From contig WJMI01000305.1 of assembly GCA_014728015.1 (NCBI GenBank), positions 6,192 to 70,191 of the forward strand: DNA of 64,000 nucleotides. Reading direction: 5' to 3'. The notes beneath the pieces were generated by a model. It worked only from the letters and a program-made list of their open reading frames with translations, ran no database searches and was not told the DNA's origin. Shown here in pieces: positions 2,296-32,210 of the stretch (position 1 is the stretch's first letter; every line of letters begins with the position of its first letter). The DNA is from Chitinivibrionales bacterium (GTDB lineage Bacteria; Fibrobacterota; Chitinivibrionia; Chitinivibrionales; WJMI01). The translations under genes were made by a program, and so were the position numbers.

Positions 2296-5177
2296 GGCCA
2301 CACGATTCGCTTCACCACCTGCCGCGTGGCAGACCGTGCTCGGACCACGTAGGTGCCTGCGGCGATACCCCGGGAGTGCATATCCAGCGCCGCTGTCCCG
2401 GCACGCGGCAGGAGTTCCAAATCGAGCAACCTTTTTCCTGCAAGTGAATAGACGTTCACCCGCACGCGCCGCGTGCTGTTTGACTTCAGAACAAGCCTGC
2501 CGTTTACAACTCCTATCACGAGCCCTTCTGTGCCCGTCCGGGGGGCCGGTCCGAGCCCGTATCGGGAGGCGTTCTGGGTTTTGTCGTATCCTGCGGGCAG
2601 AGGATAGTCCAGCTCCACGCCTGTGGGATTGCCTGGCGTGGCATCGAGATCGGGCCAGACCAGCGTGCCCAGCTTCTCCTGGTCCTGTTTGTCAAAATTG
2701 TACACGCCATGTTCGTTTGCGTTGGCATCCAGCCACAGCGTGACCTTGCGCAGCTCCTCGCCGGTAAGCGTACAATCATGGTGGCTGCCGTCGACATTCT
2801 GATACAATGGGGAACAATAGGTCCCGAATTTGTAGGGCACCGTGCGCGAGCCGCCATACCAGGGGATCACGAAGTTGAACCGCTGGCTTCCGTGGTAGAA
2901 GAACAGGTACGACGACCGTTTGTCGGGCATGGTGCCGATGGGACAGGCGATTTCCTTTCCAGCCCAATATGAACTGGTGACATTTCCCCACTCTTCGTAG
3001 CCGTTGAGTGCATACCAGTAGTGGATCTCATGTCCGTTGTTGGGACCGCCGCCGGTCGAGCTGTGGCACGGATCGCATTTGGCCTCGAAAATAGGCTGGA
3101 CGGTCCGATAGAATGAGAGCGGCTCCTGGCTTCCGGGCTCCTTCTCCAGCGGTGACGGCGCTCTTCGGAAGGCCAGGGGGTTGGAGCCCATGGGCGGGGG
3201 CGCTTCCCATTTACTCTCGTGACACCCGACACAGGTCAACTGCTCGCCCGGGTGCACGTATGTAATCGATCGCATGGAGTGAATGGCAATGCCGTTTTCG
3301 TCGAGGAGTTGGAAATATATCGGCTTGCCGACGGGCGCCTCGCAGTACACGCTGCCGTCTTCCTCGACCGGTACGACGCCCATTGACATGCGGCACAAGC
3401 TTTCGTGGCCGGCGCCGGTGCGCGGGCTGTCCTTGCCGAATGTCGACTTCGCGAAGAACTGGAGAATCCGCATCCATTTCGCCCTGGCGCCTTCGGGAAG
3501 GGGCATGTCCGAGACATACACGTTCTGCACGGCAATGGTGGCGCGCTTGTGGTCGGCGTGATCGGCCCGATCGCCCTGAAACGTACGGGTGGGGATCGCG
3601 GGTGGTTTCTGGCGCGCCCGCAGCGGGATCGGATCGAGCGGTCTGGTGCCGAGCGAAATATCGATACGGACCTCGTTGCCGAACTTGTCGAGCAGTTCGA
3701 GGTCGTCGTAGTGATTGCACAGGTAGAATTCCTCGGAGAGCGGCCACAGGGTGGCCCAGCCCGGCCACCGGTCGCCGCCGAGCCATTCGGCCTCGGGGAA
3801 CCAGGCCCCGGTCATGCGCTTGACCTGCGACATGCGGTCGTCATCCTTGATTGTCACATCGATAAGTATCGGCGCGCCGTATGCCTGGCCGTGATGCGGG
3901 CCGGCGGTGGCCGTATACTTGCCGCTCGTGCCGGGTATCGCGCGGATGTTGAACTCGGCGAACGGACGCTCCTGCCTTCCGTCAATCCATATCTCGCCGT
4001 CGATATCGTTGTTGGCGGCGAACACGGTGTCGGTGGTGGTCCAGGGGTGGGGGTAGTTGCCGTGCGGCGCGCGCGGATCGCGGCCGTCGGGATAGCAGGT
4101 CCACATGTGGTGAGCAATGCAGTCTTCGCGGTCAACATAGTCCCATCGCGAATACACGATCATACCGTCATTGTCGACCGATGGGTGCCATTCGTTAGTT
4201 TCGTGGAAGCTCAAGCAGATGATATCAGAGCCGTCATCTTTCATGGAGTACAGCGAGTAGGTGGGGTACGGCTCGCTGTGGCACCGGCCGAACCCGCCGC
4301 GCCGCGTGGTATTGAACACGATGCGGCCATTGGGGAGAAAGCACGGGTCGAAGTCATCATACGGGCCGTCGGTGAGCATCATCAGATTGGATCCGTCAAT
4401 GCCGCACTTGAAGAGGTGATAACAGTCGTTTTCGTTCCACCCCGAGCCGCCGCCGCGCGCCCAGGCAAACACAATGGTCTCTCCGTCATACGAAAGATCC
4501 GGTGACAGAAATGCGCCGCCGTTGAGAGACTGGCCGGCCAGCCGTCCGTTCTGGACCGTGGCGCCTTCGAGGACATTGTCCACGCGGGGATTGTCGGCAA
4601 AAGCATTGCGAAGGATGTACAGCCCTCCGCCGCCCGTGCTCTTGTAGCCGTAATACTGCGGGCACATGTGGCCGCACTCGGTCGCGGTTGACACAAAAAG
4701 AAGATCGTCGAAATCGAGAAGCGGATTGGAAACGGCGATCCGGCGCCGCAGGGCGCAGGCCTCCGCGAACAGGTTCCGTTCGACTGCGGTGCCTGTTTTG
4801 GCGAGGCCGAGCCGGTCTCGCGCGGCGCGCAATTCGGCCAGGCGACTACGAAAGGTATCCGCCCTCTTGCGCAGGCCGTCTGTTGACTGAAGGTGTCTGA
4901 GCAGTGCATCGGTGCGCCTCAAGACGACATCAACCGGAGTTCGGTCCGTCTCATGAAGCAGGGCGTGGGGGTCGAGAATGTCCCGTTCGACTTTCCATCG
5001 ATGGGGCGACTTCCCGAGCTTGTGGAGACTTTCGAGCCGTCCGGAAAGCTCAGCATACTCGGTATCCCACCGGGCCCGCACCGACTTGCTGTAGTTGGTT
5101 GATGTGCGTGACCCGGCGAATGGCAGAGATGCGGCTATTATGGTCAGATAGAGCGATATGACAACAGCCAATCGCAT
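2292..5177 (-). CDS. HzsA-related / PD40-like beta-propeller protein with two CxxCH haem c motifs and a T9SS C-terminal domain
   Basis: 961-aa ORF with signal peptide. Propeller motifs: FLSPDLSYDGETIVF, DFDPCFLPNGRIVF, HETNEWHPSVDNDGMIVYSRWDY. Haem motifs: LTCVGCHESKWE and a PSCyt1-like VQPIFEAKCDPCHSS. Tail: VYSLAGKRLLDLEL...GIAAGTYVVRARSATRQVVKRIVWP. Paralog of 54211-56934. SD: AAAAGGGGGAATGCGC. Confidence 0.65.
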   Translation of the reverse strand: MRLAVVISLYLTIIAASLPFAGSRTSTNYSKSVRARWDTEYAELSGRLESLHKLGKSPHRWKVERDILDPHALLHETDRTPVDVVLRRTDALLRHLQSTDGLRKRADTFRSRLAELRAARDRLGLAKTGTAVERNLFAEACALRRRIAVSNPLLDFDDLLFVSTATECGHMCPQYYGYKSTGGGGLYILRNAFADNPRVDNVLEGATVQNGRLAGQSLNGGAFLSPDLSYDGETIVFAWARGGGSGWNENDCYHLFKCGIDGSNLMMLTDGPYDDFDPCFLPNGRIVFNTTRRGGFGRCHSEPYPTYSLYSMKDDGSDIICLSFHETNEWHPSVDNDGMIVYSRWDYVDREDCIAHHMWTCYPDGRDPRAPHGNYPHPWTTTDTVFAANNDIDGEIWIDGRQERPFAEFNIRAIPGTSGKYTATAGPHHGQAYGAPILIDVTIKDDDRMSQVKRMTGAWFPEAEWLGGDRWPGWATLWPLSEEFYLCNHYDDLELLDKFGNEVRIDISLGTRPLDPIPLRARQKPPAIPTRTFQGDRADHADHKRATIAVQNVYVSDMPLPEGARAKWMRILQFFAKSTFGKDSPRTGAGHESLCRMSMGVVPVEEDGSVYCEAPVGKPIYFQLLDENGIAIHSMRSITYVHPGEQLTCVGCHESKWEAPPPMGSNPLAFRRAPSPLEKEPGSQEPLSFYRTVQPIFEAKCDPCHSSTGGGPNNGHEIHYWYALNGYEEWGNVTSSYWAGKEIACPIGTMPDKRSSYLFFYHGSQRFNFVIPWYGGSRTVPYKFGTYCSPLYQNVDGSHHDCTLTGEELRKVTLWLDANANEHGVYNFDKQDQEKLGTLVWPDLDATPGNPTGVELDYPLPAGYDKTQNASRYGLGPAPRTGTEGLVIGVVNGRLVLKSNSTRRVRVNVYSLAGKRLLDLELLPRAGTAALDMHSRGIAAGTYVVRARSATRQVVKRIVWP

Positions 5178-5422: not shown

Positions 5423-7711
5423 CTACCGGCAGATCATTACACGCCGGCAAACGGTATATGCACCTGCGGCGACTGACACCAGGTAGTACCCGGTAGGCAC
5501 CATGGTACGATTCACGAGGTACCGCCGGGAGCCGCTCCCGCGGACACGGTGCACAAGCCGTCCATTCAGGGAGAACAGGTCGACCCGGTGTGCCCCTTCG
5601 GCAGCTACGTTGACCAGCGCGCGTCCGGCCACTGCGCTCACGTGAAGCGGCATGGCGGTTCGCAGAAGGACCGGTGACAGGGCCACGGCATTGCCGCTCG
5701 AAGGACCTTCGTAGAATTCTATTTCGGCGACATTGAGATAGCCGCACTCGCCGCCGGCATTGCTGTTGTACCGGACATAGGCGGCTTCAAGCGGATCGTC
5801 GATGGTAACCGTGGTCATCTCGCCGTCGGCAGGCACGGATTCGATCGTATAGATGCTGGTCCAGTCGGTGCCGTTGGCCGAGACCTCGAATGTCCTTCCG
5901 ACCATGCGCTCACCGAAGCCGTCGCGTGGGCAGAACGAGATTTCAACAATGGTCTTGGGCTGGTCGAACCGGAACCCCGCCCAGAGCTCGTCGGCTTCAT
6001 GGCAATCGGGGTAGGTGGTGATGTCGCCGTCGAATGCGGCCCAGGGTCCTTCGCAGAAGTCGAGCGGTTCGCCTTCGGAGATAAAATGGCCGGTAGCCTT
6101 GCGCTTTGCTACAATCTCAATCTGCGTGGATGCGCTTTTGGCCGTGCCGTCCATACTGGCATCCGCGGTGACCGTAACCGTTCCCTCGGTGTTTCCCGCG
6201 GTAAACATTCCGTCGTTATCCACTTCGCCGTCAGCGCCGGTTGCCGACCAGGTGAACGCGGGCTGCGTTGGCATGGCAAGGAAATACTGGTCGCGCGCCG
6301 TTGCCCACAACTGAAGTGTCTCGCCGTAAAGGAGCGTGCGGCCGGCCGGAGTGACAGTCATCGAGGTAAACACCGGGGGCTCGGGGTCGCCGGTTTCCCA
6401 GCTTGACGATATAGAACCGGAGTGCGTGCTGTTGAGCTCCACGTTGAAATCGCTCTGGATGCTTGCCAGGCCGGTGCGACTGTTGGGACCCCAGGTAACC
6501 GTGGGCTCGCTGCCCTCCCAGGTGTTATAGTCCCAATCGAAGCTTCGCGTGCTTGCCATGCTGGTTGTCCAGGTCTCGGCTCCCAGGGACGTTCGAATCT
6601 CGCCATTCTGGTAGACGTTATGCTTCAGTGTCAGGTTCTCGATATCGCTGTTGAGCGCGGGTTCGCCGTCACGGACAGGCGCCTCGCGCTCCATGTCCCG
6701 AAGCTCGAACGATCCGTTGATCAGCGTATGCATAATAGTGACATTCTTGCTTTCGCACACCGCAATCTCGGAGCCGTCATTGTCGTGGGAGTAACAGTAT
6801 TCGAGTGTCAGCGGGCCGGTGGGATTGACTTCCCAGAACACCCCTGAGCCTTCCCAGTTGTAGGCCATGCCCTTGTTGTTGCGAAACTCGCTGTTGCGTA
6901 CGACCACGTTGCGGTTGTCCCAGTCGAACCACAGGCCGGGCCCGTGGTTGTCGTAGGCCTGGTGGTTTTCTATGAGGAGCGGGCCTTCATAGTTATTGCA
7001 CCATTTGCCGCCGCCGCCGGAGAACCCGCCCGGTACGTGGTATTTTCCGCCGATATTGTGGAAAGAGCCTTCCTTTTCCGGAAAGGGATTGTAGTCCCAG
7101 CCGCAGTTGTTGTTGCGGGAGATACAGTTCCGCACGACCACATCGCGGCATTTTCCGCCACCGATACCGCCGGCGAAGTTGTACTCGGTGATAACATCTT
7201 CGACAAGGCAATGATCGACGTCCTCGAGCACAATGCCGTCCCAGTGCGATTCCTTGGTGAGGATATTGCGCACGGTCCACCCGCGGCTTCCGCCGGCAAT
7301 GCGTACTTGCGAGTTGTTGAAAAAGCACGCGCCGCGGCGAAATGTCATGTCTTCGAGGGTAACATAGCTTGCGCCCCATGATGCGAACAGGTGACGCATG
7401 GTGGTATCGAATTCGCCGTCGATAATGACCCCGGCGCGGCTTTCGCCCTTGATCACGATCGGATTGTCGGCAGTACCCGAATTGGCCGACCAGAAGATAA
7501 TGGTCTGGTTGTAGGTGCCGGTACGAACCGTGATGACATCCCCGGGCTTGGCCAGGTCCACCGCTTTCTGGATGGTAGCGAATGGCGCGCCGGAGCTGCC
7601 GTCGTTGGTGTCGTCGCCGGATGTTGCTATGAAATAGTCGGCCGCGAATGTGCCGGCAGCGAGAAATACGCATGCCAGCGCGGCATGGATAGTTGCGCGA
7701 AGCGTTCTCAT
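5423..7711 (-). CDS. Secreted beta-helix protein type 1 with Big_2, F5/8 type C (discoidin) and T9SS C-terminal domains
   Basis: 762 aa. Signal peptide, then ADYFIATSGDDTNDGSSGAPFATIQKAVDLAKPGDVITVRTGTYNQ and beta-helix repeats (NCISRNNNCGW, HQAYDNHGPGLWFDWDN). Big_2-like: VTPAGRTLLYGETLQLWATARDQ... Discoidin-like: AAFDGDITTY...VSANGTDWTSIY...AEIEFY. Tail: LFSLNGRLVHRV...TGYYLVSVAAGAYTVCRRVMICR. Confidence 0.75.
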   Translation of the reverse strand: MRTLRATIHAALACVFLAAGTFAADYFIATSGDDTNDGSSGAPFATIQKAVDLAKPGDVITVRTGTYNQTIIFWSANSGTADNPIVIKGESRAGVIIDGEFDTTMRHLFASWGASYVTLEDMTFRRGACFFNNSQVRIAGGSRGWTVRNILTKESHWDGIVLEDVDHCLVEDVITEYNFAGGIGGGKCRDVVVRNCISRNNNCGWDYNPFPEKEGSFHNIGGKYHVPGGFSGGGGKWCNNYEGPLLIENHQAYDNHGPGLWFDWDNRNVVVRNSEFRNNKGMAYNWEGSGVFWEVNPTGPLTLEYCYSHDNDGSEIAVCESKNVTIMHTLINGSFELRDMEREAPVRDGEPALNSDIENLTLKHNVYQNGEIRTSLGAETWTTSMASTRSFDWDYNTWEGSEPTVTWGPNSRTGLASIQSDFNVELNSTHSGSISSSWETGDPEPPVFTSMTVTPAGRTLLYGETLQLWATARDQYFLAMPTQPAFTWSATGADGEVDNDGMFTAGNTEGTVTVTADASMDGTAKSASTQIEIVAKRKATGHFISEGEPLDFCEGPWAAFDGDITTYPDCHEADELWAGFRFDQPKTIVEISFCPRDGFGERMVGRTFEVSANGTDWTSIYTIESVPADGEMTTVTIDDPLEAAYVRYNSNAGGECGYLNVAEIEFYEGPSSGNAVALSPVLLRTAMPLHVSAVAGRALVNVAAEGAHRVDLFSLNGRLVHRVRGSGSRRYLVNRTMVPTGYYLVSVAAGAYTVCRRVMICR

Positions 7712-8084: not shown

Positions 8085-9335
8085 TCAGTGAATGGTCCCC
8101 ACGGCTCTGGCGGCCAAATTCTCCTCCGCTCGATAGCGATATATGTGAACTGCGCTCGGCATGCGGGTGCCGGGATGTAAGGAGTAGAAACAGGCTCTAT
8201 CGGTCCCACGTGTTATCAGCCTTCCTGTCGCGTCGAACACTCCAAAGGAGCCGTTCGGCCCAAGGGGAAGCCGGTGCTGTGCTTGTGATGCTGCTACTGG
8301 AGTTTTGTACGGTTCTCCCTCTCCTGGGGGCTGCGTCAGAAGGCCATCCAGGATGTCCTTCATTTCGCTGGTCGATTTGAGCTGTTTCAAATACGCATGT
8401 TGTTTGTCGGGCGAAGCCTGCCATGCGTTGGAGCCGTCTGCGGCAATCTCGTTGCACCCGTTCGTTTCCGCAGCCCAGTAGTCGGCAAGGCCCCGCACGG
8501 CATACAATACGGCGGTCAGATCCCAGCTTTCCCGGTTTTTGCCCTCACCGCACAGGTAGATATCATACGCCCTGCGTATCGGATTGTCATACGGTGTTTC
8601 TTCTGCCAGGGTCGAACCAGTCAGGATAGCGCTGCCGATTTCGTACCCGGAAAAGGTGACCGGTCGGGGCCAATTATCAACAGCGAACTTGGTGGCCGGC
8701 CCCATATTCAATGCCCAGAAGTTCCACTCACGGCCCTCGGGATAGGCACCTCCCATGCACGACCATGCCTTGACTTTCTTTGCAACAAGGTCCCTGCCGC
8801 ACAGATCGCTGTATTCGTCGGGTGGCGACTGCAGAAGGTGGGCAATGTTTATCAGGTAACCGACCGTGACAATGGTGACGCTGGTGTCGGGTCGTGACGC
8901 AAGTATCTGACGGTATAGGTTTGTCGACAACGGCAATTCATCGCTGGTAGCCACGTCGTGGGGATAGTTGTCCGCGAGATACTCGGCATACGAGCCGCAG
9001 GCCATGACCTTCTGTGACTTGGGAAGCGAAAACGTCCGGTCCTCAAAGATGTCGCGATGAGCCACGCCAATGGGAAGGTCGGGACGGCTGTAAAACGTGT
9101 TTACCACGTCCACCGCTGGCCCGCTCAGATAGTCGGGCACGCTTAACATCACTGCAAGGATATTGCATTCGCCGTTGTCCGCGAGGGCATGAAGCACTGC
9201 AAGTGCACCGCAGTCGTCCACGTCGCCGCCAAAGTCCGTATCGAGAATGATATTCGGCACTGCGCAGGCGGCAAATGCCAAAACCACGATCAGCCTTGCT
9301 GTGTTGAGAATAGTCGCAACGAGTCCACAGTTCAT
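8085..9335 (-). CDS. Secreted inosine-uridine nucleoside hydrolase (IUNH)-fold protein with T9SS-like tail
   Basis: N-terminal Asp cluster ILDTDFGGDVDDCGALAVLHALADNGECNILAVM (the D.D...DD Ca-binding signature of the IUNH fold) follows a signal peptide, MNCGLVATILNTARLIVVLAFAACA. Start moved to the ATG at 9335, preceded by AGGAAGGGGGGATCCT. Paralog of 31014-32210. Confidence 0.7.
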   Translation of the reverse strand: MNCGLVATILNTARLIVVLAFAACAVPNIILDTDFGGDVDDCGALAVLHALADNGECNILAVMLSVPDYLSGPAVDVVNTFYSRPDLPIGVAHRDIFEDRTFSLPKSQKVMACGSYAEYLADNYPHDVATSDELPLSTNLYRQILASRPDTSVTIVTVGYLINIAHLLQSPPDEYSDLCGRDLVAKKVKAWSCMGGAYPEGREWNFWALNMGPATKFAVDNWPRPVTFSGYEIGSAILTGSTLAEETPYDNPIRRAYDIYLCGEGKNRESWDLTAVLYAVRGLADYWAAETNGCNEIAADGSNAWQASPDKQHAYLKQLKSTSEMKDILDGLLTQPPGEGEPYKTPVAASQAQHRLPLGPNGSFGVFDATGRLITRGTDRACFYSLHPGTRMPSAVHIYRYRAEENLAARAVGTIH

Positions 9336-9469
9336 AGGATCCCCCCTTCCTGTTGGTCTGCTGTTGCCGGGAAGTGTACCCCAAATCGTCTGTCCAGACA
9401 ACCTACCGAGCGGACCATGTTGTTGCACTTTTCGGACAATCTGCCGCAAGAATGGGTATATTAGTTTGC

Positions 9470-10252
9470 ATGAAGCTTGAATTCGCCCTTGTGGTGACCC
9501 ATTCCGCCGGATACAGTGTCAGCGACCACACGCATGATGCCCTCGAAATCGTATGCTTTATTACTGGCAGCGGGAGCGTGGCCCTGAAAGGAAAACGGTA
9601 CTGCTACGGACCGGGAAGGTTTGCCATCATTCCTGCCGACATTTCGCATGACCAGCAGTATGGAGAAGAGACGCAGACCGCCTGCATCGGCATTTCCGGA
9701 AGCGGCCTCGAGGAATACCGCGGCGTATGGGATGACCCGGACGCGCAGGTGCGCACGGCCGCCTTGCGATTGATCGAGGAAACCAACGGGAAAAGGGAGG
9801 CCTACCTTCTTGTTTGCCACGGCCTCGCGTATGTCGTGGCCGGCCTGGCCCAGAGGGCCGTCAAAAAGCAGAACCCTTCGGTCGGCCGGCAGCGGCTCGT
9901 TGACGAAGCCATCGACATGATCGTTGCATGCGAAGGAGATACGTCTGTTGGAGAACTGGCCGACAGCCTCTTTGTCAGCAAAGGCTATCTTCGCCATCTG
10001 TTCGGCGATCACGCCCCGTATTCTCCGGTGAAGATGATCCTCCATGCGCGCATTGCCAAGGCAAAAAGCCTTTTGCAGGGCACGGCGCGGGCTCTGTCCG
10101 ATATCGCGTATGCGTGTGGCTTCGAGACCCCCCAGTATTTCTCGCGCGTATTCCGCAAGGCTGTCGGGCGTTCGCCGAGCCAGTATCGCAAGGAGGGCGG
10201 AGAAAGACTCAACAGGCCCGACACCCTTCACTGGCAGGGCCCCCCGACCTAG
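9470..10252 (+). CDS. AraC-family transcriptional regulator (cupin sensor plus AraC HTH)
   Basis: C-terminus: GYLRHLFGDHAPYSPVKMILHARIAKAKSLLQGTARALSDIAYACGFETPQYFSRVFRKAVGRSPSQYR. N-terminal cupin-like: HTHDALEIVCFITGSG...GRFAIIPADISH. Start taken at the ATG at 9470 (MKLEFALV), only 7 nt after a TATATT box. Confidence 0.85.
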   Translation: MKLEFALVVTHSAGYSVSDHTHDALEIVCFITGSGSVALKGKRYCYGPGRFAIIPADISHDQQYGEETQTACIGISGSGLEEYRGVWDDPDAQVRTAALRLIEETNGKREAYLLVCHGLAYVVAGLAQRAVKKQNPSVGRQRLVDEAIDMIVACEGDTSVGELADSLFVSKGYLRHLFGDHAPYSPVKMILHARIAKAKSLLQGTARALSDIAYACGFETPQYFSRVFRKAVGRSPSQYRKEGGERLNRPDTLHWQGPPT

Positions 10253-10642: not shown

Positions 10643-12193
10643 CTACTTCTTCAGGACCTTTCCGTTGAGCAGGCGCTGAACGGTGCCGTCGGTGTAGCGG
10701 ATGATGACCACGCCCGCAGGCATTGCTTTCAGTGAGCCTGTCGTGATGGCGCTCTTGGCAAGCGCCGCGCCCTTGACCGAGTAGACCGCTTCGATCTGGT
10801 TTGCCCGCGGGCGGATGCTGTAGCGTACCGGGCGCCGCGCGTTATCCACCGCGCCGCCGCTTTCCACCACGCTGAATGTGCGCGATGCTTCGCCGCCGTT
10901 GCCGTTGAGAAAGATCGTTATGAGCATGGGGCCGGTGATATTGTCCGGCACGGTGAAATCGACTTCGGCGCCCGAGCCGATACCGACCACGCCTTCGCCG
11001 TCGGAGTCGGCATCATAGCTCCACATCAGGTTGTCGCCGGTCCCGGCAAGCGTCACTGTAGTGCCCATCTCCAGCGTGCTGCCTTCGCCGGGCGACACGA
11101 ACACGGTGGGCGTGAGGTCGCCGCCGCCTTCACACTGCGCATCGGTGGGCGAGACCGCGAGATCGGGGTCGTCTTCGCGATTGGCGAACAGAGGAAGCCC
11201 TTTTTTGTAAAGCACAAGCTTGTCTATTGCGAAATCAAACGAGCGGGGCTGGATTTTTATCGTATGCACGCCTGCGCTCAGGTCGAACTCGCCCGTGCAC
11301 CAGCAGCCTTCCATGGTGCTCTCCCAGTTCCATGCATTTGTCAAATGGGAGAAGGTTTTTTCGAAATGATGCCCGGCGACCGATACCCAGTGGTCGTTAT
11401 GCTGGGTATGGTCGTCCCAGTCGTGATAGTTGCGGTATCTGAACACAAAGGTGCCGGGGTTGCAGACATATACATTGTATACGAGTTCGTTTGAGCCGGG
11501 AGGCGAGCCGAAAAAGTCGGCGCCAAGCCACCGCAGGTACCCGTCGCCGGAATATCCCGCCCAGTTCGTTTCCAACGCCCAGTCGCCGGAGTACTCGGCG
11601 CTTTCGCATTCCACCACGATCATGCCGTCTTTCTCGTAGTAGAGGTCGCCAGCCGCCGGCGGCGGTGGTGGCGGGGGCGGCGGCGTGACACTACCGCCGG
11701 TGGACACGAACTTGATATAGCTGAACCGGCTGTATTGACCGTGACTGGCGCCGCAGGGATAGACCGAGCGCGCCCAGTAGGTAATCTTGTCGCCGTTGTT
11801 TATCGTGTGATTGCCGAGGTCGAGCTCTTCGAGCCGGTATGTGCTTCCGCTGCAGTTGAGGTTGCCGTCGGCGTACGGGAAATTCCCCGTGGCCACGATA
11901 GCGCCGGCGATTGACAGTTCGTACGGCGAGTTGCCATCGGATTCCAGCACGGCGCCGAGAAGGACATTATAGGTGCCGTCATCGCCGGGAAACGCATCCC
12001 ACCACACATCGCCGTCAAGCGACGACCCGGTACCGTCGATACCAAGGCAGCTGATACCGTTGATCGAGCGGTCCTTCCACACACCGTCCTTGCCGCTGCA
12101 TTCCAGGGCATTGAGCTGGACTTCGGCGGCGAATGCGGACACTGCCATGGCGAGAACGGTCATGGCCGTTGTGACTCTGAGAGTCGTACGCAT
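10643..12193 (-). CDS. Secreted two-module carbohydrate-binding-like protein with poly-Pro linker and T9SS-like tail (paralog A)
   Basis: 516 aa with signal peptide. Module 1: GIDGTGSSLDGDVWWDAFPGDDGTYNV...SVYPCGASHGQYSRFSYIKF. PPPPPPPPP linker. Module 2: ECESAEYSGDWALETNWAGYSGDGYLRWLG...HTIKIQPRSFDFAIDKLVLYK. No catalytic motif recognised. SD: ACAGGAGGGGGGCTCTC. Confidence 0.55.
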   Translation of the reverse strand: MRTTLRVTTAMTVLAMAVSAFAAEVQLNALECSGKDGVWKDRSINGISCLGIDGTGSSLDGDVWWDAFPGDDGTYNVLLGAVLESDGNSPYELSIAGAIVATGNFPYADGNLNCSGSTYRLEELDLGNHTINNGDKITYWARSVYPCGASHGQYSRFSYIKFVSTGGSVTPPPPPPPPPAAGDLYYEKDGMIVVECESAEYSGDWALETNWAGYSGDGYLRWLGADFFGSPPGSNELVYNVYVCNPGTFVFRYRNYHDWDDHTQHNDHWVSVAGHHFEKTFSHLTNAWNWESTMEGCWCTGEFDLSAGVHTIKIQPRSFDFAIDKLVLYKKGLPLFANREDDPDLAVSPTDAQCEGGGDLTPTVFVSPGEGSTLEMGTTVTLAGTGDNLMWSYDADSDGEGVVGIGSGAEVDFTVPDNITGPMLITIFLNGNGGEASRTFSVVESGGAVDNARRPVRYSIRPRANQIEAVYSVKGAALAKSAITTGSLKAMPAGVVIIRYTDGTVQRLLNGKVLKK

Positions 12194-12836: not shown

Positions 12837-14132
12837 TTACCGCTTCACGACCTTCCCGTTGACCATCCGGGAAACGCTGCCGTCGGTGTAGCGGACCACC
12901 ACGACTCCGGCCGGCAGGGCCTTCACCGCGGCGCCTGCGATCATGTTTTTATCGAGTCGTCTGCCGTCTATGGTGTAGGCGGCTTCGACCGCGGCCCTGG
13001 CGCGCGGCTTGTACCGCACCGCGGCGGACTTGTGCGCAATCACGGACCCGTCGCACGTGTTGGCGGTCGGCGTGACCGCGTGATCAGGATCGCTCTCGTT
13101 GGTGTCGAAGCCCTGCTCAGACCAGGCCTTGTACACGATGAACTTGTCGATACAGAAATCGCTGGAGCGCGGCTGGATCTTCACGGTGTGCTCGCCTTCG
13201 TCGAGATTGAAATCGCCCGAGCACCAGCACGGGTCGAAGATCGTGTACCACGACCACTGGTTCTTGATATGTGACATGGTCTTGCGGAACGAATAATCGT
13301 CGATAGACACGAAGTAGTCGTTGTTCTCCTCGTGGTTGTCGTGGATCAGGTGGTTGCGGTACTTGAACCAGTACTGCCCGGCCTCACAGATGTAAATCTT
13401 GTAGGTGAGCTGCTTGTCGGCGCCCGGAGGCGAGCCGAATGACTGCGGGCCCCGCCAGACATAGTACCCGTCGCCGGAATAGCCCGCGTATTCTGTTTCC
13501 AGGTGCCAGTCGCTGTGCGGGATCGGGCAGCTTTCGATTTCAACCACGATTTTTTCACCGATCGCATCAGGATAGTAGACCTCATCACCGGTCACTACCT
13601 GTTCATCGCCCGGGTTCGGGGTAACTTCATCGGTGGTAGGCTCGAACCTGATGCCGGTGAACCGCGCATACTGACCATGATCGCTTCCGCACGGATACAC
13701 CGACTGCGCCCACATGCGTATCTCATCGCCCTGGCTGATTTCTTTCACGCCGCAATCGAGATCTGATTCCTCGTAGGCGGTCGCGCCGCAGTCTTTGTCG
13801 CCGCCGCCGTAAAAGGGATAACTGCTCGAAGCCACCAGGGTGCCGCCGACAAAGATTTTGTATGGCGAGTTGCCGTCCGTCTCAAGGATGGCCTGCAGAT
13901 AGATGCGGTAGCGGCCGGTTTCGCCGGGAAACGAATTCCACCAGATGTCGCCATCAATGGAGCTTCCCGTGCCGTTCAGGCCCATACATGTGTATGGAGT
14001 ACCGCCCGACCGGTCTGTCCACTCACTGTCTTTGCCGTCGAAATCCATCGCACCCAGAGTAACCTGGGCTGAGGCCGCCGTGCCGAGACACAGGATAAGC
14101 GCGGCCGCGGTCAGTTTGATTGTGTTACTCAT
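12837..14132 (-). CDS. Secreted two-module carbohydrate-binding-like protein with T9SS-like tail (paralog B)
   Basis: Start moved to the ATG at 14132 (MSNTIKLTAAALILCLGTAASAQV), preceded by GGAAAAGGGGGGTCTC. Collinear with 10643-12193; by eye roughly half of the residues are identical. Confidence 0.55.
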   Translation of the reverse strand: MSNTIKLTAAALILCLGTAASAQVTLGAMDFDGKDSEWTDRSGGTPYTCMGLNGTGSSIDGDIWWNSFPGETGRYRIYLQAILETDGNSPYKIFVGGTLVASSSYPFYGGGDKDCGATAYEESDLDCGVKEISQGDEIRMWAQSVYPCGSDHGQYARFTGIRFEPTTDEVTPNPGDEQVVTGDEVYYPDAIGEKIVVEIESCPIPHSDWHLETEYAGYSGDGYYVWRGPQSFGSPPGADKQLTYKIYICEAGQYWFKYRNHLIHDNHEENNDYFVSIDDYSFRKTMSHIKNQWSWYTIFDPCWCSGDFNLDEGEHTVKIQPRSSDFCIDKFIVYKAWSEQGFDTNESDPDHAVTPTANTCDGSVIAHKSAAVRYKPRARAAVEAAYTIDGRRLDKNMIAGAAVKALPAGVVVVRYTDGSVSRMVNGKVVKR

Positions 14133-14193
14133 GAGACCCCCCTTTTCCTTTGAGCTTGCAAGGGTTGCACCCTCTCGCCAAAACATGGATGAA

Positions 14194-14203
14194 AATATAG
14201 GGG
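14194..14203 (-). promoter_or_regulatory. CCCCTATATT promoter-like motif upstream of 12837-14132
   Basis: Exact 10-mer on the minus strand, 61 nt upstream of the ATG at 14132. Confidence 0.4.
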
Positions 14204-14594
14204 TGATTTTGGCTCGAATAGATAGACTTTGCCTGGCCCTAAGCGTTCCTGTTAGGCCAGAATGGACAGGGAGTAACCATGCATGGTTTTCTGGCAGGCG
14301 CATCAAAGGTCCCGAAAACGCCATCCAAGTGGACATCAGACCGTTCTTCATATATACTATGGTAGGAACTGCTTCATACCGGACAGAGAGGACAGGGCTA
14401 TAAGAAGGAAAGGATCATCGGGGCGAACCCAGCCTGACCTGGCGCTTTGGCAGCCAGCCGGTCCGCATGTTGGTGGGTTTCGGCGAGGCAAGCTGTTCTC
14501 CCAAGTGCACCGTAGCTGACAGGTGAAGGCGGCTGATTTCCGGACTCTGATCTCTGACCTGTGACTTCTGATCTCTGCCAATAGGGAGATTTTC

Positions 14595-16073
14595 TTGAGC
14601 AGGCATGATTTCCGCACGTGGTTGACGGACTACCTGGACAAACTGGAACCGGGCAGATGGCTGCCCCCGGATGCAGAGCTTGGCAGGAAATGGGACCTCT
14701 CAGCCAGGACGGTGCGCCGCGTGATGGCACAGATGGCCAGAGAGGGCCTGGTCGAGCGGGTCCAGGGCAAAGGCACGAGAAAGCCCGGGGCCGGAGAGAA
14801 TCGAGAGCTTGAAACATTCGAAGAATCCCGGTCGTCATCCCAGCGACTGGCCGAGGCGCTGACCGAGTCGATTTCCAGCGGCCAGATTCGCCGGGGGGAT
14901 GCGCTCCCGCAGCTCAAATATATCTGCCTTCGGTACCACGTGTCCGATAAGACGGTCATTGCCGCATACGAACTTCTGCAGAAAAAAGGGCTGGTGAAAA
15001 AGATCGGGCGCTACTATCGCGTGGGCGGGTTCGAGCCGCTGGAGCGCCGCCCGATTACTCGCGCGGCGTATCTTGTGACCGGCAGCCAGGACGAGTTGTC
15101 ACTCGTTTTCGCCGGCGACCAGCTCGCCCAGGCATATATCAAGCTTGATCGCGAGCTTCGTTCCTGCGGCATACTTCTTACCTGCATGGACACGGCGGAA
15201 TTCCTCGAAGCCCAGCGCCAGTGGGCGGGCGCCGATTCGTATCCGGCGGGCGTATACCTGTGGCGGGTTGACGGCCGCGATTTTGACGAGCGCGTGAAAC
15301 TGGTCTCACCGCTCTTGAGACGGACGCGTCGCCAGCGGATTCCGGTTGTCGTGGATCTGGGTTCGCACGACGGGGTCGGCGAGGTTCCCAAGGGGCTGAT
15401 GATTGTCTCGCGCGGGAACCTCAGCACGACCCTTTCGCGGACCATCGCGGAATTTCTCACGTCGCGCATACGGCGCCGGATCGTGCTTGTCCTCGATGCG
15501 AAAAGCATTATTGCGGATGCGCGCCAGGGATTGCTCAAGTACCAGAAAACCGTGTATGAGGTCCTGCAGCACGCGGCCGAAAAAGTTGCCATACACCAGG
15601 CAGTGCTCAGCGGCGATAGTGCGCTCTCTGTCGAGTCAATTGTCGAGCGTGCCTCCGAGAAAGAGGCCGGCTACATCAAGTACCTGCACGAGAAATACGA
15701 AAGCGTGGTCCGGGCGCAGAGCCGCGACGTGTTCACCGGCCTTTCGGTATACAATGATTTCGCGGATGTGATTCGCGCATTCGGGAAGAATACCTTGTGG
15801 TTGTGTCCTTCAGACGTGCAGGCCAGAAGCGCGCTGGATGCATTGAAGCGCGCGGGGATCAGGGTGCCGGATGACATCGCCTTGATGACCCTTCAGAGCG
15901 TTCCCGAGTATTACCACCTGGGCGTATCATCGTGCACGCCCGACTACGAGCTGGTTGGGTATATCATGGCCCACGCGATAATCGGCGATATTCCCCTGAA
16001 AAAGTCCCACCACGGGTATCTGCGGATACCGTGTCCGGTTGTGGAACGGGCGACCACGCCGCGGGTGCGGTAG
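14595..16073 (+). CDS. Transcriptional regulator, paralog 2: tandem GntR-type wHTH x2 plus LacI/PBP1-like sensor
   Basis: wHTH1: LPPDAELGRKWDLSARTVRRVMAQMAREGLVERVQGKG. wHTH2: LPQLKYICLRYHVSDKTVIAAYELLQKKGLVKKIGRYYRVGG. C-terminus: CPSDVQARSALDALKRAGIRVPDDIALMTLQS. TTG start preceded by AGGGAGA. Confidence 0.75.
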   Translation: MSRHDFRTWLTDYLDKLEPGRWLPPDAELGRKWDLSARTVRRVMAQMAREGLVERVQGKGTRKPGAGENRELETFEESRSSSQRLAEALTESISSGQIRRGDALPQLKYICLRYHVSDKTVIAAYELLQKKGLVKKIGRYYRVGGFEPLERRPITRAAYLVTGSQDELSLVFAGDQLAQAYIKLDRELRSCGILLTCMDTAEFLEAQRQWAGADSYPAGVYLWRVDGRDFDERVKLVSPLLRRTRRQRIPVVVDLGSHDGVGEVPKGLMIVSRGNLSTTLSRTIAEFLTSRIRRRIVLVLDAKSIIADARQGLLKYQKTVYEVLQHAAEKVAIHQAVLSGDSALSVESIVERASEKEAGYIKYLHEKYESVVRAQSRDVFTGLSVYNDFADVIRAFGKNTLWLCPSDVQARSALDALKRAGIRVPDDIALMTLQSVPEYYHLGVSSCTPDYELVGYIMAHAIIGDIPLKKSHHGYLRIPCPVVERATTPRVR

Positions 16074-18345: not shown

Positions 18346-18744
18346 TATTACCCCGCGGATGCACGCACCACATGCGGAACACGTCCATAGACACGATTCA
18401 TGTGTTATGAGCCCATGATGCTGGGGATCGGGAGAGAACCCGGATCTACATATTGTACCCAAACTGGCGCCAAAGTTCAACAAATTTTTAGTATCACGGT
18501 ATTCAGGATTGCACAGACCGGCATTTTCCCCGGTCCATGCCGGCAGCGAGGAAATTGCGGCCATGTGTCTCTCTTCAAGCAGGCACGACACTATATATGG
18601 GGGGGGCATTGCACTGTAACAGTATAACACAGTAGTACCATATTGTCCTGGAACCTGTTCCCGGCTCTGTCTATTATTGAGGATACTGTGCGGGAAGAAG
18701 AGGGGATGATTAACCCTTATTCAGAGAAAGAGGGAGACGGCGTC

Positions 18745-20640: not shown

Positions 20641-20669
20641 TACGCTCAATGCAAGGAGGCCGGGCGAAC

Positions 20670-22103: not shown

Positions 22104-22129
22104 CGATCGTGGGTCTTCCCGCAAATCCC

Positions 22130-22163
22130 AGCCCCGGTTTTCGCACGATGGCCGGGGCTTTTG
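22130..22163 (+). terminator. Putative rho-independent terminator after 20670-22103
   Basis: AGCCCCGG / CCGGGGCT stem with a 14-nt loop, followed by TTTG. Confidence 0.4.
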
Positions 22164-22308
22164 CATGCTTGTGTTGTGCTTGTGGTAAGGATATGATACC
22201 AATTGACGCTTTCTCCGCGCTCTCTCTTTCCATATCTTGTGAAGAATCGTATCGCTGCCGCACGCGGGGGAGGGGCGGCCGCTGTTCCCACAGTCACTGG
22301 AGCATAAA

Positions 22309-28198: not shown

Positions 28199-30943
28199 AT
28201 GGGACCACTGATGAAACAAATCATGCTCCCCGCAATCCTGATGGCGACAATCGGCGCAACGCATGCAGACACTGTCTACGTGGCCCCCGGCCACGACCTC
28301 GGCGATGCTATCGGCAAAAACCCCCCTCACACCACGTTCATAATCAGGCGCGGGGTGCACAAAAACGCGAAAATTCACGGGCCAAAAACCGGACAGGCGT
28401 TCATCGGGGAGGACGGCGCCGTACTCGAGGGCGACACGGGCATCATGTACTGCGTCAACGGGTGGCGGCAGAACGGCGAAGGCGACAGTGTGACTGTCCG
28501 TAATCTGGAAATACGCGGGTACTGGTACGAAGACTGTGGTGGCGCGGCCGTCCTGATGGAGCCCTTCAGCAAGGGATGGGTGTTCGAAGACAACGAGGTG
28601 CACCACAACGGCGGCGTGGGTGTGATATTCGGCAGTCATTGCGTCATCCGTAATAACTACATCCATCACAACACCATGCAGGGCGTGGGATGCGGCGGCA
28701 ACTGCGGCGAGGGGTACAAGGGCAATCTTAGCCCGTGCAGCAAACACGCGGTATTCGAAAACAACGAAGTGGCCTGGAACAACTGGGACGCGGAGCGTGA
28801 TACGAATTTCTGCGAATGGGGGCACACGGGAGGCGGCAGCAAGTTCGCGGTTGCGTTGGGGCTCGTGGTGAAAAACAACTGGTCGCATCACAACTGGGGA
28901 CCGGGATTCTGGACCGATGTGGCGAACGACAGCATCGTATACGAAGGCAATCTCGTGGAGCACAATATTGCCATGGGCATTTTCCACGAGATCAGCTGGG
29001 GTGTTGAAATCCGATGCAATATCTCGCGGCAGAACGGCGTATGGGTGGATTTCGGCGGGGACCAGCAGATCCTGCTTACTTCGGCCGGGCCCGCCGAGGT
29101 CTGGGGGAATATCGTCGAAGTCAACGCGCTTCACGGCGGCGGCATAACCTGGGGAGAAAACCGGCGGCTTCCGTTCCGGTCGCAGGATATCAGCGTGCAT
29201 CACAATACGATCATTTTTCCCGGCGAAGTCGGCACGGCCATCGGCGCGGGGTGCCAGTGGTATGATTCGTGCGCCATGTTTTACGAAACAAACTGCTGGA
29301 ACCATTCGATAGACTACAACACATATTATGTACCGAGCAAAGACTGCAGACTGTGGCGGTTCAATGGACCGTCCTACCACGGCCTTACATGGGATGATTT
29401 CACGGCGCTTCACGAACTGGGCGCACATGGGACGGTCATCGAAACTGATGATTTCCCTTCGGCGGACGATATCGAATGTCCGGACGGTTGTGAAGACATT
29501 CTGTCGCCCAGCATGATCATGTCGCCGCGGCGGCTTACGGTGCGCGCCGCCGCGGGCGGCGGCAATCCCGTGCCGCACACCATGACGATCAGAAACAAAG
29601 CCAAGGGGCGACTCGATCGCATTGAGACAAACGTGGTGTATCATGACGGCGACGGGTGGCTCGGCATTTCTACACCGGACGGCGCCGGCAATATGCAGCG
29701 AATTGTCAACAGCGTTGATGTGTCCGGCCTTGCAACCGGGGAGTATCTGGCGCGCGTGGAAATCACGTGCGACAACGCAACACCGTCCTACATGAAATAC
29801 CTCGTGTGGCTGTATGTGGAAGACGGTGGATCATCGGCAGGACATGTCGTGGTGACACCGGATAATGCAACCGTCTCACCGGGTCAGACGGTTCGCTTCG
29901 ATGCCGTTGTTGTTGACCGGCTCGGCAATCCGCTTTCTGTCCAGCCAGCTGTCACGTGGACTGTGGATGGCGAAGGGAGCGTGGCCGCCGGCCTGTATAC
30001 CCCGCCCTCGACGCTGGGAGGGCCGTATACGATTACCGCATCGGCGGGTTCTGCCGGCGGCTCGGCTGAGGTTGCGGTGATGCGCGCCCTGCCGCTGGTG
30101 CAGGACGGGAGTTTTACTGATATTCAAGGCACGAGCCAAACCGGATTCATCAAGAAACTCCTTACAATACGCGGTTCGGATGACATGCCGGTTGCGGTTG
30201 TAGGTGACGGCAATACGGGAGTTGACAATGTGCTCGTGCCCGGCATCGGAGGCCTGTGGCCGATTCCGGGAGACAAGATCGCCATTCTCGGCACTGATTA
30301 CACATGGAGCATCGAATACGAAGATGATGCCTTCTGGAATGACAACGTCCGTGAAAAGGCTCATTACTGGGTAGATTACTTTTTCATTGCGCTGGTGAGC
30401 CCCGTCGAACGGCAGGTACGGATCGGCACCCGTCACATGGGGGGAATCAAGATATGGCTCAATGGTAATCCCGTACATCAGAACGGCTGGTGGGACGGAT
30501 GGGGAACCGAGGCTACCGTACCGGTGACGTTGAAGAAAGGCCACAACCGCCTAATGCTGAAACTCACCGCCGGTGACGGCGATAGCTATTTCGCGGTGCA
30601 GGTTGCTGAAGAGAACGGAAGGCTGCTTACGGATCTCCAGTACTCTCTTGGCGGTGACAACGAGCAGGACCTCGTTGCGCGCGCATCGGCTCGCGTTCCT
30701 CGGAATCGTTTGGCAGGGCTTATGGTGCGACGCGCAGCGGGGCGATTCCTTGTTGACGTTTCTGGCGCCGGAGGGGGCCACGAGCTGCAACTGTTGACAT
30801 TGAGCGGACGGACCATCATGAAACGCCGGGGCGCAGGCAATGCCGTGTATTCGGTCCCGCGCGCCGTTTTGGCGCGGGGTGTGTATCTGGTGTCTTTGCG
30901 AAGCAGCACGGGCGTGATTCGCACGAAGCTGGTCGCGTATTGA
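28199..30943 (+). CDS. Secreted beta-helix protein type 2 with Big_2, beta-sandwich and T9SS C-terminal domains (copy 1)
   Basis: FIGEDGAVLEGD, NLEIRGY, VHHNGGVGVIFG, IRNNYIHHNTMQGVG, NNWSHHNWGPGFWTDVANDSIVYEGNLVEHNIAMGIFHEISWGVEIRCNISRQNG. Big_2-like: VVVTPDNATVSPGQTVRFDAVVVDRLGNPL. Tail: LLTLSGRTIMKRR...ARGVYLVSLRSSTGVIRTKLVAY. Start is either 28199 or 28211. Confidence 0.7.
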   Translation: MGPLMKQIMLPAILMATIGATHADTVYVAPGHDLGDAIGKNPPHTTFIIRRGVHKNAKIHGPKTGQAFIGEDGAVLEGDTGIMYCVNGWRQNGEGDSVTVRNLEIRGYWYEDCGGAAVLMEPFSKGWVFEDNEVHHNGGVGVIFGSHCVIRNNYIHHNTMQGVGCGGNCGEGYKGNLSPCSKHAVFENNEVAWNNWDAERDTNFCEWGHTGGGSKFAVALGLVVKNNWSHHNWGPGFWTDVANDSIVYEGNLVEHNIAMGIFHEISWGVEIRCNISRQNGVWVDFGGDQQILLTSAGPAEVWGNIVEVNALHGGGITWGENRRLPFRSQDISVHHNTIIFPGEVGTAIGAGCQWYDSCAMFYETNCWNHSIDYNTYYVPSKDCRLWRFNGPSYHGLTWDDFTALHELGAHGTVIETDDFPSADDIECPDGCEDILSPSMIMSPRRLTVRAAAGGGNPVPHTMTIRNKAKGRLDRIETNVVYHDGDGWLGISTPDGAGNMQRIVNSVDVSGLATGEYLARVEITCDNATPSYMKYLVWLYVEDGGSSAGHVVVTPDNATVSPGQTVRFDAVVVDRLGNPLSVQPAVTWTVDGEGSVAAGLYTPPSTLGGPYTITASAGSAGGSAEVAVMRALPLVQDGSFTDIQGTSQTGFIKKLLTIRGSDDMPVAVVGDGNTGVDNVLVPGIGGLWPIPGDKIAILGTDYTWSIEYEDDAFWNDNVREKAHYWVDYFFIALVSPVERQVRIGTRHMGGIKIWLNGNPVHQNGWWDGWGTEATVPVTLKKGHNRLMLKLTAGDGDSYFAVQVAEENGRLLTDLQYSLGGDNEQDLVARASARVPRNRLAGLMVRRAAGRFLVDVSGAGGGHELQLLTLSGRTIMKRRGAGNAVYSVPRAVLARGVYLVSLRSSTGVIRTKLVAY

Positions 30944-31013: not shown

Positions 31014-32210
31014 ATGCGAACAGGTCTTGCGGCAATCGCCATGCTCATAGCTGCCGCCATATGCCGTGCCGATGCGCCGCGCATCATCTTCGATACCGAC
31101 ATGTGCTCGGATATCGACGATATCGCGGCCCTGGGCATGCTCCACGCGCTTGCAGACAACGGCGAGTGCATCCCGCTGGGCATGATGCTTTCAAGCGGCA
31201 ATGATGACGGCATCGCCGCGATCAGCGCGATGAACCACTACCATAACCGTCCAGACCTTCCGATCGGTTCATTCAAGGGCGCGGGAAAGAGCTCGCCCAA
31301 CTACTACGGCGCAATCCCGGATCGATTTCCCTGCGCCGTGCGCACCCGCGATGATGTTCCCGATGCCGTGTCGGTCTATCGCCGGATACTCGCGTCCCAG
31401 CCGGATGCCAGTGTTACCATTGTCACAGTGGGCTACCTGCACAACATTCGGGACCTTCTGCAATCCGGGGCGGACCAGCACAGCGATCTTAGCGGTGTCC
31501 AGTTGGTCGCGGCAAAAGTCAAGGAGTGGTCGTGCATGGGAGGCAGTTTCTGGGATGCCAACAACTGGAGTTTCGAATGGAACCTGTGCGAGGACGGTGC
31601 AGCAAGCAAGTATGCAATCGATCATTTCCCGTCGGCGATCGTGTTCAGCGGGTATGAAATCGGTGATCCCGTGAAGACCGGCGTGGGGTACGGTGACCGC
31701 ACGCCGGCGGAAAATCCCGCCCGCGCCGTATACGATCCGAATTACCCGGACTGGCCCCGGCAGGAGGGGCACTGCAGTTTCGATCAGACCGCGGTGTTGC
31801 ATGCGGCGCGCGGCATTCGTAACTACTGGGATGCCAACACGACCGGCTATTGCGAAGTCAACGATGCAGGATACGTGTTCTGGCACGATTCGCCGGACAA
31901 AGAGCACGGATATCTGATTCGCAAAATGGACAACAACGAGCTTGCGGGGATTATCAACGAACTCATGTTTCAGCAGCCGTTTGAGGGCGAAAGCGACCCG
32001 GTCCCGGTGGTGAGGTATGGCGGGCCGAATGACGGCTCACGCCGGGATGCCGCGCTTGTCTCGCCTGCCCGAGTATTCGACCTGCGGGGACGGGCTCTCG
32101 GCGGTGTCCCAACGGTTCGAGGGGACAAGCAGGCTCTTGGGTTTGGGGTGTACGTCGCGGATGCCTTTTCAGGGAATGCAAAAGCAGCACGGGAATTGGT
32201 GCTTCGTTGA
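31014..32210 (+). CDS. Secreted IUNH (nucleoside hydrolase)-fold protein with T9SS-like tail, copy 2
   Basis: APRIIFDTDMCSDIDDIAALGMLHALADNGECIPLGMM. Collinear with 8085-9335 (VTIVTVGYL.NI..LLQS, VKEWSCMGG, FSGYEIG). SD: GGGGGGGAGGAAAC. Confidence 0.7.
   Translation: MRTGLAAIAMLIAAAICRADAPRIIFDTDMCSDIDDIAALGMLHALADNGECIPLGMMLSSGNDDGIAAISAMNHYHNRPDLPIGSFKGAGKSSPNYYGAIPDRFPCAVRTRDDVPDAVSVYRRILASQPDASVTIVTVGYLHNIRDLLQSGADQHSDLSGVQLVAAKVKEWSCMGGSFWDANNWSFEWNLCEDGAASKYAIDHFPSAIVFSGYEIGDPVKTGVGYGDRTPAENPARAVYDPNYPDWPRQEGHCSFDQTAVLHAARGIRNYWDANTTGYCEVNDAGYVFWHDSPDKEHGYLIRKMDNNELAGIINELMFQQPFEGESDPVPVVRYGGPNDGSRRDAALVSPARVFDLRGRALGGVPTVRGDKQALGFGVYVADAFSGNAKAARELVLR

Follow-up and report, generated by a model that had tools for sequence, protein, structure and literature searches.

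The nucleoside hydrolases (NHs) of the inosine-uridine nucleoside hydrolase (IUNH) superfamily are classically cytoplasmic, leaderless salvage enzymes, and in these cytoplasmic IUNHs the Asp motif begins at about residue 8-10. The roles of the active-site residues are those of the published IU-NH mechanism, in which the carbonyl of Thr126 binds Ca2+; in the group-II IAG-NHs, a Trp instead of a His precedes the Ca2+-binding Asp, and the base is activated by aromatic stacking. A different setting has been described for RusNH (BT2808) of the B. thetaiotaomicron ribose utilization system (rus), a periplasmic NH encoded in a polysaccharide utilization locus (PUL), which cleaves para-nitrophenyl (pNP)-β-D-ribofuranoside and, weakly, all nucleosides tested, and whose Asp motif includes a conserved Asn along with an additional acidic residue (Glowacki et al., 10.1101/574913). 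Rus loci hold NHs, ADP-ribosylglycohydrolases, 22 glycoside hydrolase (GH) families and sulfatases, and it has been proposed that the diversified loci release ribose from a variety of sources to which it is covalently linked (10.1101/574913); in our literature searches on signal-peptide-bearing or periplasmic NHs and on BT2808, this preprint was the sole relevant item. Here we analyze two genes for exported NH-fold proteins in a 64-kb stretch of DNA (hereafter the window) from the metagenome-assembled genome of a Chitinivibrionales bacterium: gene A (8085..9335, minus strand, 416 aa; P0009) and gene B (31014..32210, plus strand, 398 aa; P0001), both annotated 'nucleoside hydrolase' and both located on one 81-kb contig. 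On the basis of the fold, the export signal, the conserved ligands and the gene context of relatives that we observed, we infer their chemistry, substrate and localisation to be those of Sec-exported, Ca2+-dependent ribosyl hydrolases that release ribose outside the cytoplasm, a reading to which we assign a probability of roughly 0.6.

An earlier note on the window had placed two NH-fold open reading frames (ORFs) at these positions, and both are present. The ORF of gene A comprises 454 codons (8085-9449, minus), within which the internal ATG at 9335 is the start, matching the NCBI call. A and B are paralogs (E 3e-84, 45% identity over 325 aligned residues), their likeness ending before the final 70-80 residues. 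Against the Pfam model PF01156 (IU_nuc_hydro), with its gathering cut-off of 34.2 bits, B scores 36.3 bits (E 6.5e-9) and thus passes, and A scores 32.4 bits (E 9.7e-8) and stays slightly below; the threshold of the NCBIfam RihC equivalog model is far from reached by either protein. A sequence search of the PDB with B alone gave no match; with a profile of 120 homologs, the same database returned 13 nucleoside hydrolase structures, the best at an E of 1.5e-7. An AlphaFold2 model, built for protein B only and on the 120-homolog alignment, reached a mean predicted local distance difference test score of 85 and a predicted template modelling score of 0.82, was confident across residues 21-325 and adopts the NH fold, the structure prediction called for in the earlier note. 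When this model was submitted to Foldseek, the 50 best PDB matches listed were all nucleoside or riboside hydrolases at a probability of 1.0, with target-normalised template modelling (TM) scores of about 0.70-0.74 and an identity of ~16% to solved IUNHs. A and B are thus members of the IUNH superfamily, within an exported clade, and their NH fold is real and far beyond chance, though they are distant members.

Export was part of the earlier description, which set the two proteins apart from the classical cytoplasmic salvage enzymes by their signal peptides, and this has held up well. The leader of A (residues 1-24, MNCGLVATILNTARLIVVLAFAAC; 9264..9335, minus) is of the Sec type with a 12-residue Kyte-Doolittle hydropathy maximum of 3.1, and is predicted to end in either an AFA/A signal-peptidase-I site or a lipobox-like FAAC, the latter making lipidation of A possible. 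That of B (residues 1-20, MRTGLAAIAMLIAAAICRAD; 31014..31073, plus; cleavage site likewise predicted) has a maximum of 2.82 (2.8 when rounded) and R2 in its n-region; in the model of B, a predicted helix at residues 4-16 is followed by the first strand at 23-28. The Asp cluster starts 26-31 residues after Met1 in A and B. Applying a 12-residue Kyte-Doolittle mean of at least 1.8 as the leader criterion, we found a leader in 115 of the 120 clade members, where the motif starts at a median residue of 33, so that neither A nor B nor these 115 relatives match the leaderless, cytoplasmic state of the classical salvage NHs.

The Asp cluster indeed follows the leader directly, as had been noted, but it is not the canonical DXDXXXDD. 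In the 120-member family alignment that underlies all column statistics given here (residue numbers are those of B), it takes the form of a 10-residue DTDxxxDxDD, which exceeds DXDXXXDD by two residues and gains a further invariant Asp (D33). The motif reads DTDFGGDVDD in A (residues 32-41; 9213..9242, minus) and DTDMCSDIDD in B (D27, D29, D33, D35 and D36; 31092..31121, plus), and its five Asp columns are invariant in all 120 members. HMMER alignment to the solved structures 1mas and 8qnd pairs D29, D35 and D36 with Asp10, Asp14 and Asp15 of C. fasciculata IU-NH and leaves D33 clade-specific; invariant residues are D27, D29, D33, D35, D36, R123, L126, G140, L148, K168, N190 and D257. A check of the catalytic residues beyond the Asp cluster, as had been suggested, revealed the equivalents of Glu166, Asn168 and Asp242 to be kept and the catalytic His to be replaced by Trp or Phe. 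The T-V-G strand of the family aligns with the IU-NH strand holding Thr126, and E188-W189-N190 of B (31575..31583, plus) aligns with the 'EFN' of 1mas, 8qnd, 8ctm and 5tsq, so that E188 and N190 correspond to Glu166 and Asn168, which bind the ribose hydroxyls; all members have N190, and 67% of them, A and B included, have E188. In F256-D257 of B (31779..31784, plus), D257 is invariant and corresponds to Asp242, a Ca2+ ligand, and F256 stands at the place of the group-I catalytic His, the 'swD' of the family aligning with the 'MHD' of 8qnd at a posterior of about 0.7-0.8 (HMMER). The His241 position is Trp in A and Phe in B, and Trp (71%), Ala (23%) or Phe (5%) in the clade, a mix which indicates that the residue is no conserved acid. 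Judged from these alignments, the metal- and glycone-binding half of the site is fully kept, whereas the leaving-group half seems to depart from group I and to resemble the Trp-type arrangement of IAG-NH at position 256 alone.

By homology, the Asp cluster, the backbone carbonyl of the 'TVG' strand and D257 would hold a Ca2+ ion, which would chelate the 2',3'-cis-diol of a β-D-ribofuranosyl group while E188 and N190 bind the remaining hydroxyls. D29 would activate the Ca2+-bound water for attack on C1', with the leaving group resting against the Trp of A or the Phe of B, where group I has its His; such an aromatic replacement would favor aromatic or otherwise good leaving groups, e.g., nucleobases. 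The products would be free ribose and the aglycone, set free in the periplasm or outside the cell, and in many relatives the ribose may then be imported by the adjacent RbsU-type permease and phosphorylated by the adjacent ribokinase. The substrates are most likely to be nucleosides and similar ribosides that derive from cofactors and from nucleic acids outside the cell.

The gene context of relatives bears on this proposal. Among the candidates scored, 600 clusters fell at E≤1e-3, and a pattern scan (one genome per GTDB species) placed relatives in at least 490 species-level genomes, among Bacteroidota, Planctomycetota, Verrucomicrobiota, Acidobacteriota, Armatimonadota, Fidelibacterota, KSB1, Hydrogenedentota and others. 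Neighborhoods were counted for the best 80 loci with flanks of up to 10 kb on each side. A ribokinase-type PfkB gene occurs in 12 of these loci, mostly directly adjacent to the NH gene, an RbsU-type sugar permease in 9 and sulfatases in 14. By Pfam, the ORFs immediately upstream or downstream include ADP-ribosylglycohydrolases (ARHs; two upstream, six downstream), PfkB (four and one), sulfatases (two and four) and three further IU_nuc_hydro copies, and beyond these commonest neighbors there are scattered single glycoside hydrolases. Clustering of the neighbors followed by a rescan placed ~525-aa exported ARH proteins next to the NH in 9 loci. Operons of the order ribokinase-NH-ARH-permease were found in two Bacteroidota loci (L055 and L069) and ribokinase-NH-ARH in a third (L079); a Fidelibacterota locus (L009), whose NH is the nearest genomic relative of B among the matches listed (46% identity), has the same four genes ordered permease-ARH-ribokinase-NH. 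In Maribellus, a LacI gene is followed by an NH of a second type, a ribokinase, an NH of the A/B clade and a permease. A ribokinase within 10 kb in 15% of loci is, by our own estimate rather than by computation, far above expectation, since a genome holds few ribokinase genes among thousands. In 27 checked columns that include the conserved signature, the ribokinase-linked members and A/B are alike, apart from D194M in A, which also has L instead of Q at the variable column 258, and from Y77H, R253H and W256F in B. These shared signature residues are the main reason why we assign to A and B the same glycone, ribose.

Several observations weigh against this assignment. Homologs of ribokinase, the RbsU-type permease, ADP-ribosylglycohydrolase or sulfatase are lacking in the 64-kb window, and 54 of the 80 loci are without any flagged ribose or sulfatase gene. 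In a rough neighbor-joining tree that carries no support values, A and B fall into the non-Bacteroidota half, where the ribose context appears only once, and some relatives lie within sulfatase- and GH-rich PULs. The mapping of the catalytic His to Trp comes from a single HMMER alignment of moderate confidence, and the assignment of nucleosides as the substrate of the clade is itself an inference.

For the C-terminal tails, which the earlier note had likened in both proteins to sorting domains of the type IX secretion system (T9SS), the assignment finds support for B but not for A. To build a tail hidden Markov model (HMM), we took the C-terminal 62 residues of 17 further proteins of the window that have an evident sorting-type tail and themselves score 38-75 bits. 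Residues 353-391 of B (...RVFDLRGRAL...GFGVYVADAF...; 32070..32186, plus) match this model in register with 10.8 bits, a value reached by none of 1000 shuffles of the same tail and corresponding to an E of 0.0023 among the 120 family members. For comparison, the homolog P0013, in which Pfam recognises a Por_Secre_tail, scores 9.5 bits and thus less than B, and P0010, with a clear tail, scores 20.8 bits. The C-terminal extension of A (residues ~339-416; 8088..8321, minus), which is missing from most family members (median length 338 aa), gave 1.9 bits in C-terminal register, and this was not significant, as 88 of 1000 shuffles reached it. The Pfam Por_Secre_tail model matches neither tail, yet the window positive control itself came to merely E 0.13. 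A T9SS sorting tail thus appears supported for B, but not for A, and B is probably handed on to the T9SS, the presence of which in this genome is implied by the 17 other proteins with the common tail.

These 17 proteins make up about half of the approximately 33 large ORFs of the window and are all secreted. They end in one common ~60-aa tail (...L.GR.V......G.Y.v.......R.vv.) that is only marginally detected by the Pfam model and looks like a lineage-specific variant of the T9SS sorting domain. The tail-bearing ORFs include 2292-5177, 5423-7711, 18643-24162, 24810-26015, 28199-30943 and 32414-34774, and further 36801-40498, 42353-43540, 45738-48386 and 50148-56934.

As had been stated before, A and B do lie among glycan-degrading enzymes: the window holds three GH63/MGH1-like proteins, several β-helix proteins and other secreted neighbors, together with two HZS_alpha/PD40 propellers and four regulators of the GntR-periplasmic binding protein type. 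Upstream of B, a gene for a 914-aa right-handed β-helix protein (28199..30943, plus; PF13229 E 8.7e-12; tail HMM 67.5 bits) stops 70 nt before B and has a paralog at 45738-48386. Downstream of A lies a gene for a 762-aa protein with β-helix and F5/8 type C domains (5423..7711, minus; PF13229, PF00754 and PF07602; tail HMM 65 bits), and divergent from A a gene for an AraC-family regulator (9452..10252, plus; PF12833, PF00165 and PF02311) which, by its position, is a candidate regulator of A. Around A and B, scans for promoters and terminators returned nothing better than shuffles. A conserved pair of NH and β-helix genes was considered and rejected, as the two neighboring β-helix proteins are ~23% identical in the helix and the pairing is not recurrent elsewhere. 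The β-helix gene upstream of B is the last of a three-gene cassette (24810-30943) of which a paralogous copy exists at 42353-48386 with unchanged gene order and strand (38-50% identity); it encodes a ~400-aa tailed protein, a GH63/MGH1-like hydrolase and a ~900-aa β-helix protein with sorting tail. The ~400-aa protein is without a Pfam catalytic domain, a weak Por_Secre_tail being seen in 24810-26015 and no hit in 42353-43540. An NH gene follows the first copy only, and none follows the second.

It was from the adjacency to the β-helix gene that the earlier note had argued for a non-nucleoside substrate, possibly a polysaccharide, and it is here that we part from it. Since about half of the large window ORFs encode secreted proteins that end in this one tail, glycan enzymes next to an NH gene are expected from their density alone and carry little information on its substrate; moreover, one copy of the cassette does without an NH gene, and neither β-helix nor GH63 proteins are recurrent neighbors in the 80 loci. 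The recurrent neighbors of relatives are instead ribokinase, the RbsU-type permease and ADP-ribosylglycohydrolase, and A and B share the signature residues of these relatives. Of the proposed cleavage of a furanosyl linkage in a polysaccharide, the ribofuranosyl group survives as the sugar, owing to the ribose-linked relatives, whereas nothing was found in favor of a glycan as the aglycone. That an exported NH might act on a non-canonical substrate was a reasonable idea, but the adjacency argument fails in this window.

A glycan-active furanosidase, i.e., an NH fold that cleaves O-linked β-ribofuranosyl or another cis-diol furanosyl group (e.g., apiosyl) from a polysaccharide in concert with the β-helix and GH63-like neighbors, nevertheless has points on its side and is, in our view, unlikely. 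The window is dense in secreted carbohydrate-active proteins, and the Arenibacter homolog P0021 lies in a PUL of the order SusC-SusD-GH5-GH39-NH-sulfatase-sulfatase-GH106?-sulfatase-NH, thus with three sulfatases and a second NH. P0002 (L006 3751-5697) is a single 648-aa protein with two tandem NH domains of the A/B clade, near genes for the furanosidase-type enzymes GH32 and GH127 and for a Pel9A-like β-helix protein. Immediate neighbors of relatives also include the six sulfatases already counted, two apiosidase-like proteins and, once each, a fucosidase, GH130, GH3, a rhamnosidase and an alginate lyase. RusNH, too, is a poor nucleosidase (10.1101/574913). Against such an activity speak the NH-less copy of the cassette and the β-helix proteins that do not recur in the 80 loci, and likewise the leaving-group position, where Trp, Phe or Ala provides no apparent carboxylate or His acid catalyst. 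NH enzymes depend on a leaving-group activation suited to heteroaromatic bases, and we know of no NH that cleaves alkyl O-glycosides; our literature searches turned up neither an NH-fold glycoside hydrolase nor a 'ribofuranosidase'. A bolder form of this idea would regard the exported clade as a new NH-fold glycoside hydrolase family of Ca2+-dependent O-furanosidases that trim β-ribofuranosyl caps or an apiose-like cis-diol furanose off bacterial or algal polysaccharides, delivered by the T9SS beside β-helix and GH63-like enzymes. We regard this form as doubtful at best; its clearest cases would be the members in SusC/SusD-sulfatase PULs and beside GH32/GH127. The glycan reading, if right, would add a new fold to the glycoside hydrolases.

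The commonest immediate neighbors point in another direction. The ~525-aa exported ADP-ribosylglycohydrolases in 9 of the 80 loci, and the combination of NH and ADP-ribosylglycohydrolase genes in Rus loci (10.1101/574913), could mean that A and B hydrolyze ADP-ribose/NAD-type or other conjugated ribosides, acting in series with ADP-ribosylglycohydrolase-family enzymes on cofactors or ribosylated molecules. We consider this improbable for A and B, since the window contains no ADP-ribosylglycohydrolase gene and the association is limited to a Bacteroidota subclade plus the Fidelibacterota locus. As to the ARH proteins themselves (L055 6215-7792, L069 11068-12687, L079 10961-12538 and L009 7096-8664), their ARH domain begins ~40-54 residues in and is followed by ~180-200 additional C-terminal residues; their occurrence in ribokinase-NH-permease operons suggests an exported ribosidase of the ARH type.

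NH-like domains of the PF07632 type have been suggested to play a binding role, and A and B as non-catalytic modules that bind carbohydrate or another ligand would fit their ~16% identity to active enzymes and the position of A under the Pfam gathering cut-off, but we deem this highly improbable in view of metal ligands and an N190 that are invariant in 120 members from many phyla, of the operon linkage of relatives with ribokinase and permease genes, which argues that a free sugar is produced, and of the search for a PF07632-type (Sde_0182-type) domain in A and B, which gave no match at E≤1 and led us to rule it out.

We therefore return to exported ribosyl hydrolases as the preferred reading of A and B, with nucleosides as the most likely source of the ribose, conjugated ribosides as a possible one and ribosylated polysaccharides as a minority option that we hold to be unlikely. 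If the reading is correct, a clade present in at least 490 species-level genomes from a dozen phyla of polymer degraders goes under the annotation of a cytoplasmic-type 'nucleoside hydrolase'. Once defined, the substrate of the clade would reveal how bacteria in the environment obtain ribose and bases from cofactors, extracellular nucleic acids or ribosylated polymers, and the idea of ribose utilization developed for Bacteroides would then reach far outside the gut. For the present window, the lesson is that adjacency to carbohydrate-active enzyme (CAZyme) genes is weak evidence.

Some further features of the window may be recorded in their own right. The ORFs 18643-20640 and 22309-24162 encode secreted proteins of 617-665 aa that are 46% identical and without a Pfam hit; they share the motif 'WTTL(V/T)NEPN', which is typical of TIM-barrel glycosidases of clan GH-A, and may represent a divergent GH30/GH5-like family. 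The paralogs 10643-12193 and 12837-14351 (both minus, 46% identity) have weak GH115_C/Golvesin_C-like matches and a shorter sorting tail, the former also carrying a poly-Pro linker. The ORFs 2292-5177 (minus) and 54175-56934 (plus), each of ~950 aa and 46% identical, combine a hydrazine-synthase-alpha middle domain with PD40 propeller repeats and sorting tails, an architecture unusual among CAZyme-like genes. Finally, 694-2295, 14595-16073, 40588-42159 and 48502-50061 encode ~500-aa regulators with a GntR winged helix-turn-helix (HTH), a Peripla_BP_3 domain and a long N-terminal extension; one lies near each enzyme cluster, and two show a weak match to a second HTH.

Viewed against the known systems, A and B have the fold in common with the group-I IUNHs, i.e., C. 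fasciculata IU-NH (1mas/2mas), Leishmania IUNH (5tsq/8ctm) and E. coli RihA, RihB and RihC, and they likewise place the Asp cluster straight after strand 1 and keep equivalents of the Ca2+ ligands and of Glu166 and Asn168. They differ from group I by an identity of only ~16%, a motif that is longer by two residues and contains D33, the change of the catalytic His241 to Trp (A) or Phe (B), export instead of a cytoplasmic location, a C-terminal extension of 70-80 residues and the additional clade-invariant residues H44, R123 and R79. The purine-specific group-II IAG-NHs of Trypanosoma vivax/brucei (1hp0, 2ff2 and 4i70) are structural neighbors as well and have in common with clade members a W-D at the aligned position; on the other hand, their TM scores of 0.60-0.67 lie below those of group I, a match at the sequence level is lacking, and their second stacking Trp could not be mapped onto the clade. 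Stacking as in IAG-NH would not be universal in the clade, given that position 256 is Ala in 23% of its members. With regard to T9SS cargo bearing type-A C-terminal domains (Por_Secre_tail), the last ~45 residues of B match the tail of the 17 window proteins, but both A and B have shorter, degenerate tails, the match of A not being significant and the Pfam model being negative for both.

RusNH remains the most instructive comparison. It is an exported NH as well, and many members of the A/B clade are found in equivalent loci with ribokinase and permease genes; A and B, however, are not part of a ribose locus within the 64-kb window, and a ribokinase was found in 12 of the 80 homologous loci. 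Compared with the motif of RusNH as described in the paper, the A/B clade has the extra Asp (D33) but not the Asn. A second clade of exported NHs, represented by the other NH of the Maribellus locus (L001 6125-7096) and by P0121-P0240, has the motif DTDTYNEvDD and a Trp-Asp pair, and its 120 best clusters all lie at an identity of at least 75%, including Prolixibacteraceae and the Flavobacteriaceae genus Mariniflexile. Going by the published description of its motif, RusNH probably belongs to this second clade rather than to that of A and B; Bacteroides thetaiotaomicron was not named among the 120 best matches to the Maribellus NH of this second clade. The two clades are 22% identical by BLAST and are related with an hhalign probability of 96% at 17% identity, and in both the motif spans 10 residues, the seventh being acidic, and the Trp-Asp pair is present. 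A and B are not a new kind of system, and the idea that an exported NH frees ribose from ribosides is not new either, having been put forward for RusNH and the ribose utilization systems (10.1101/574913).

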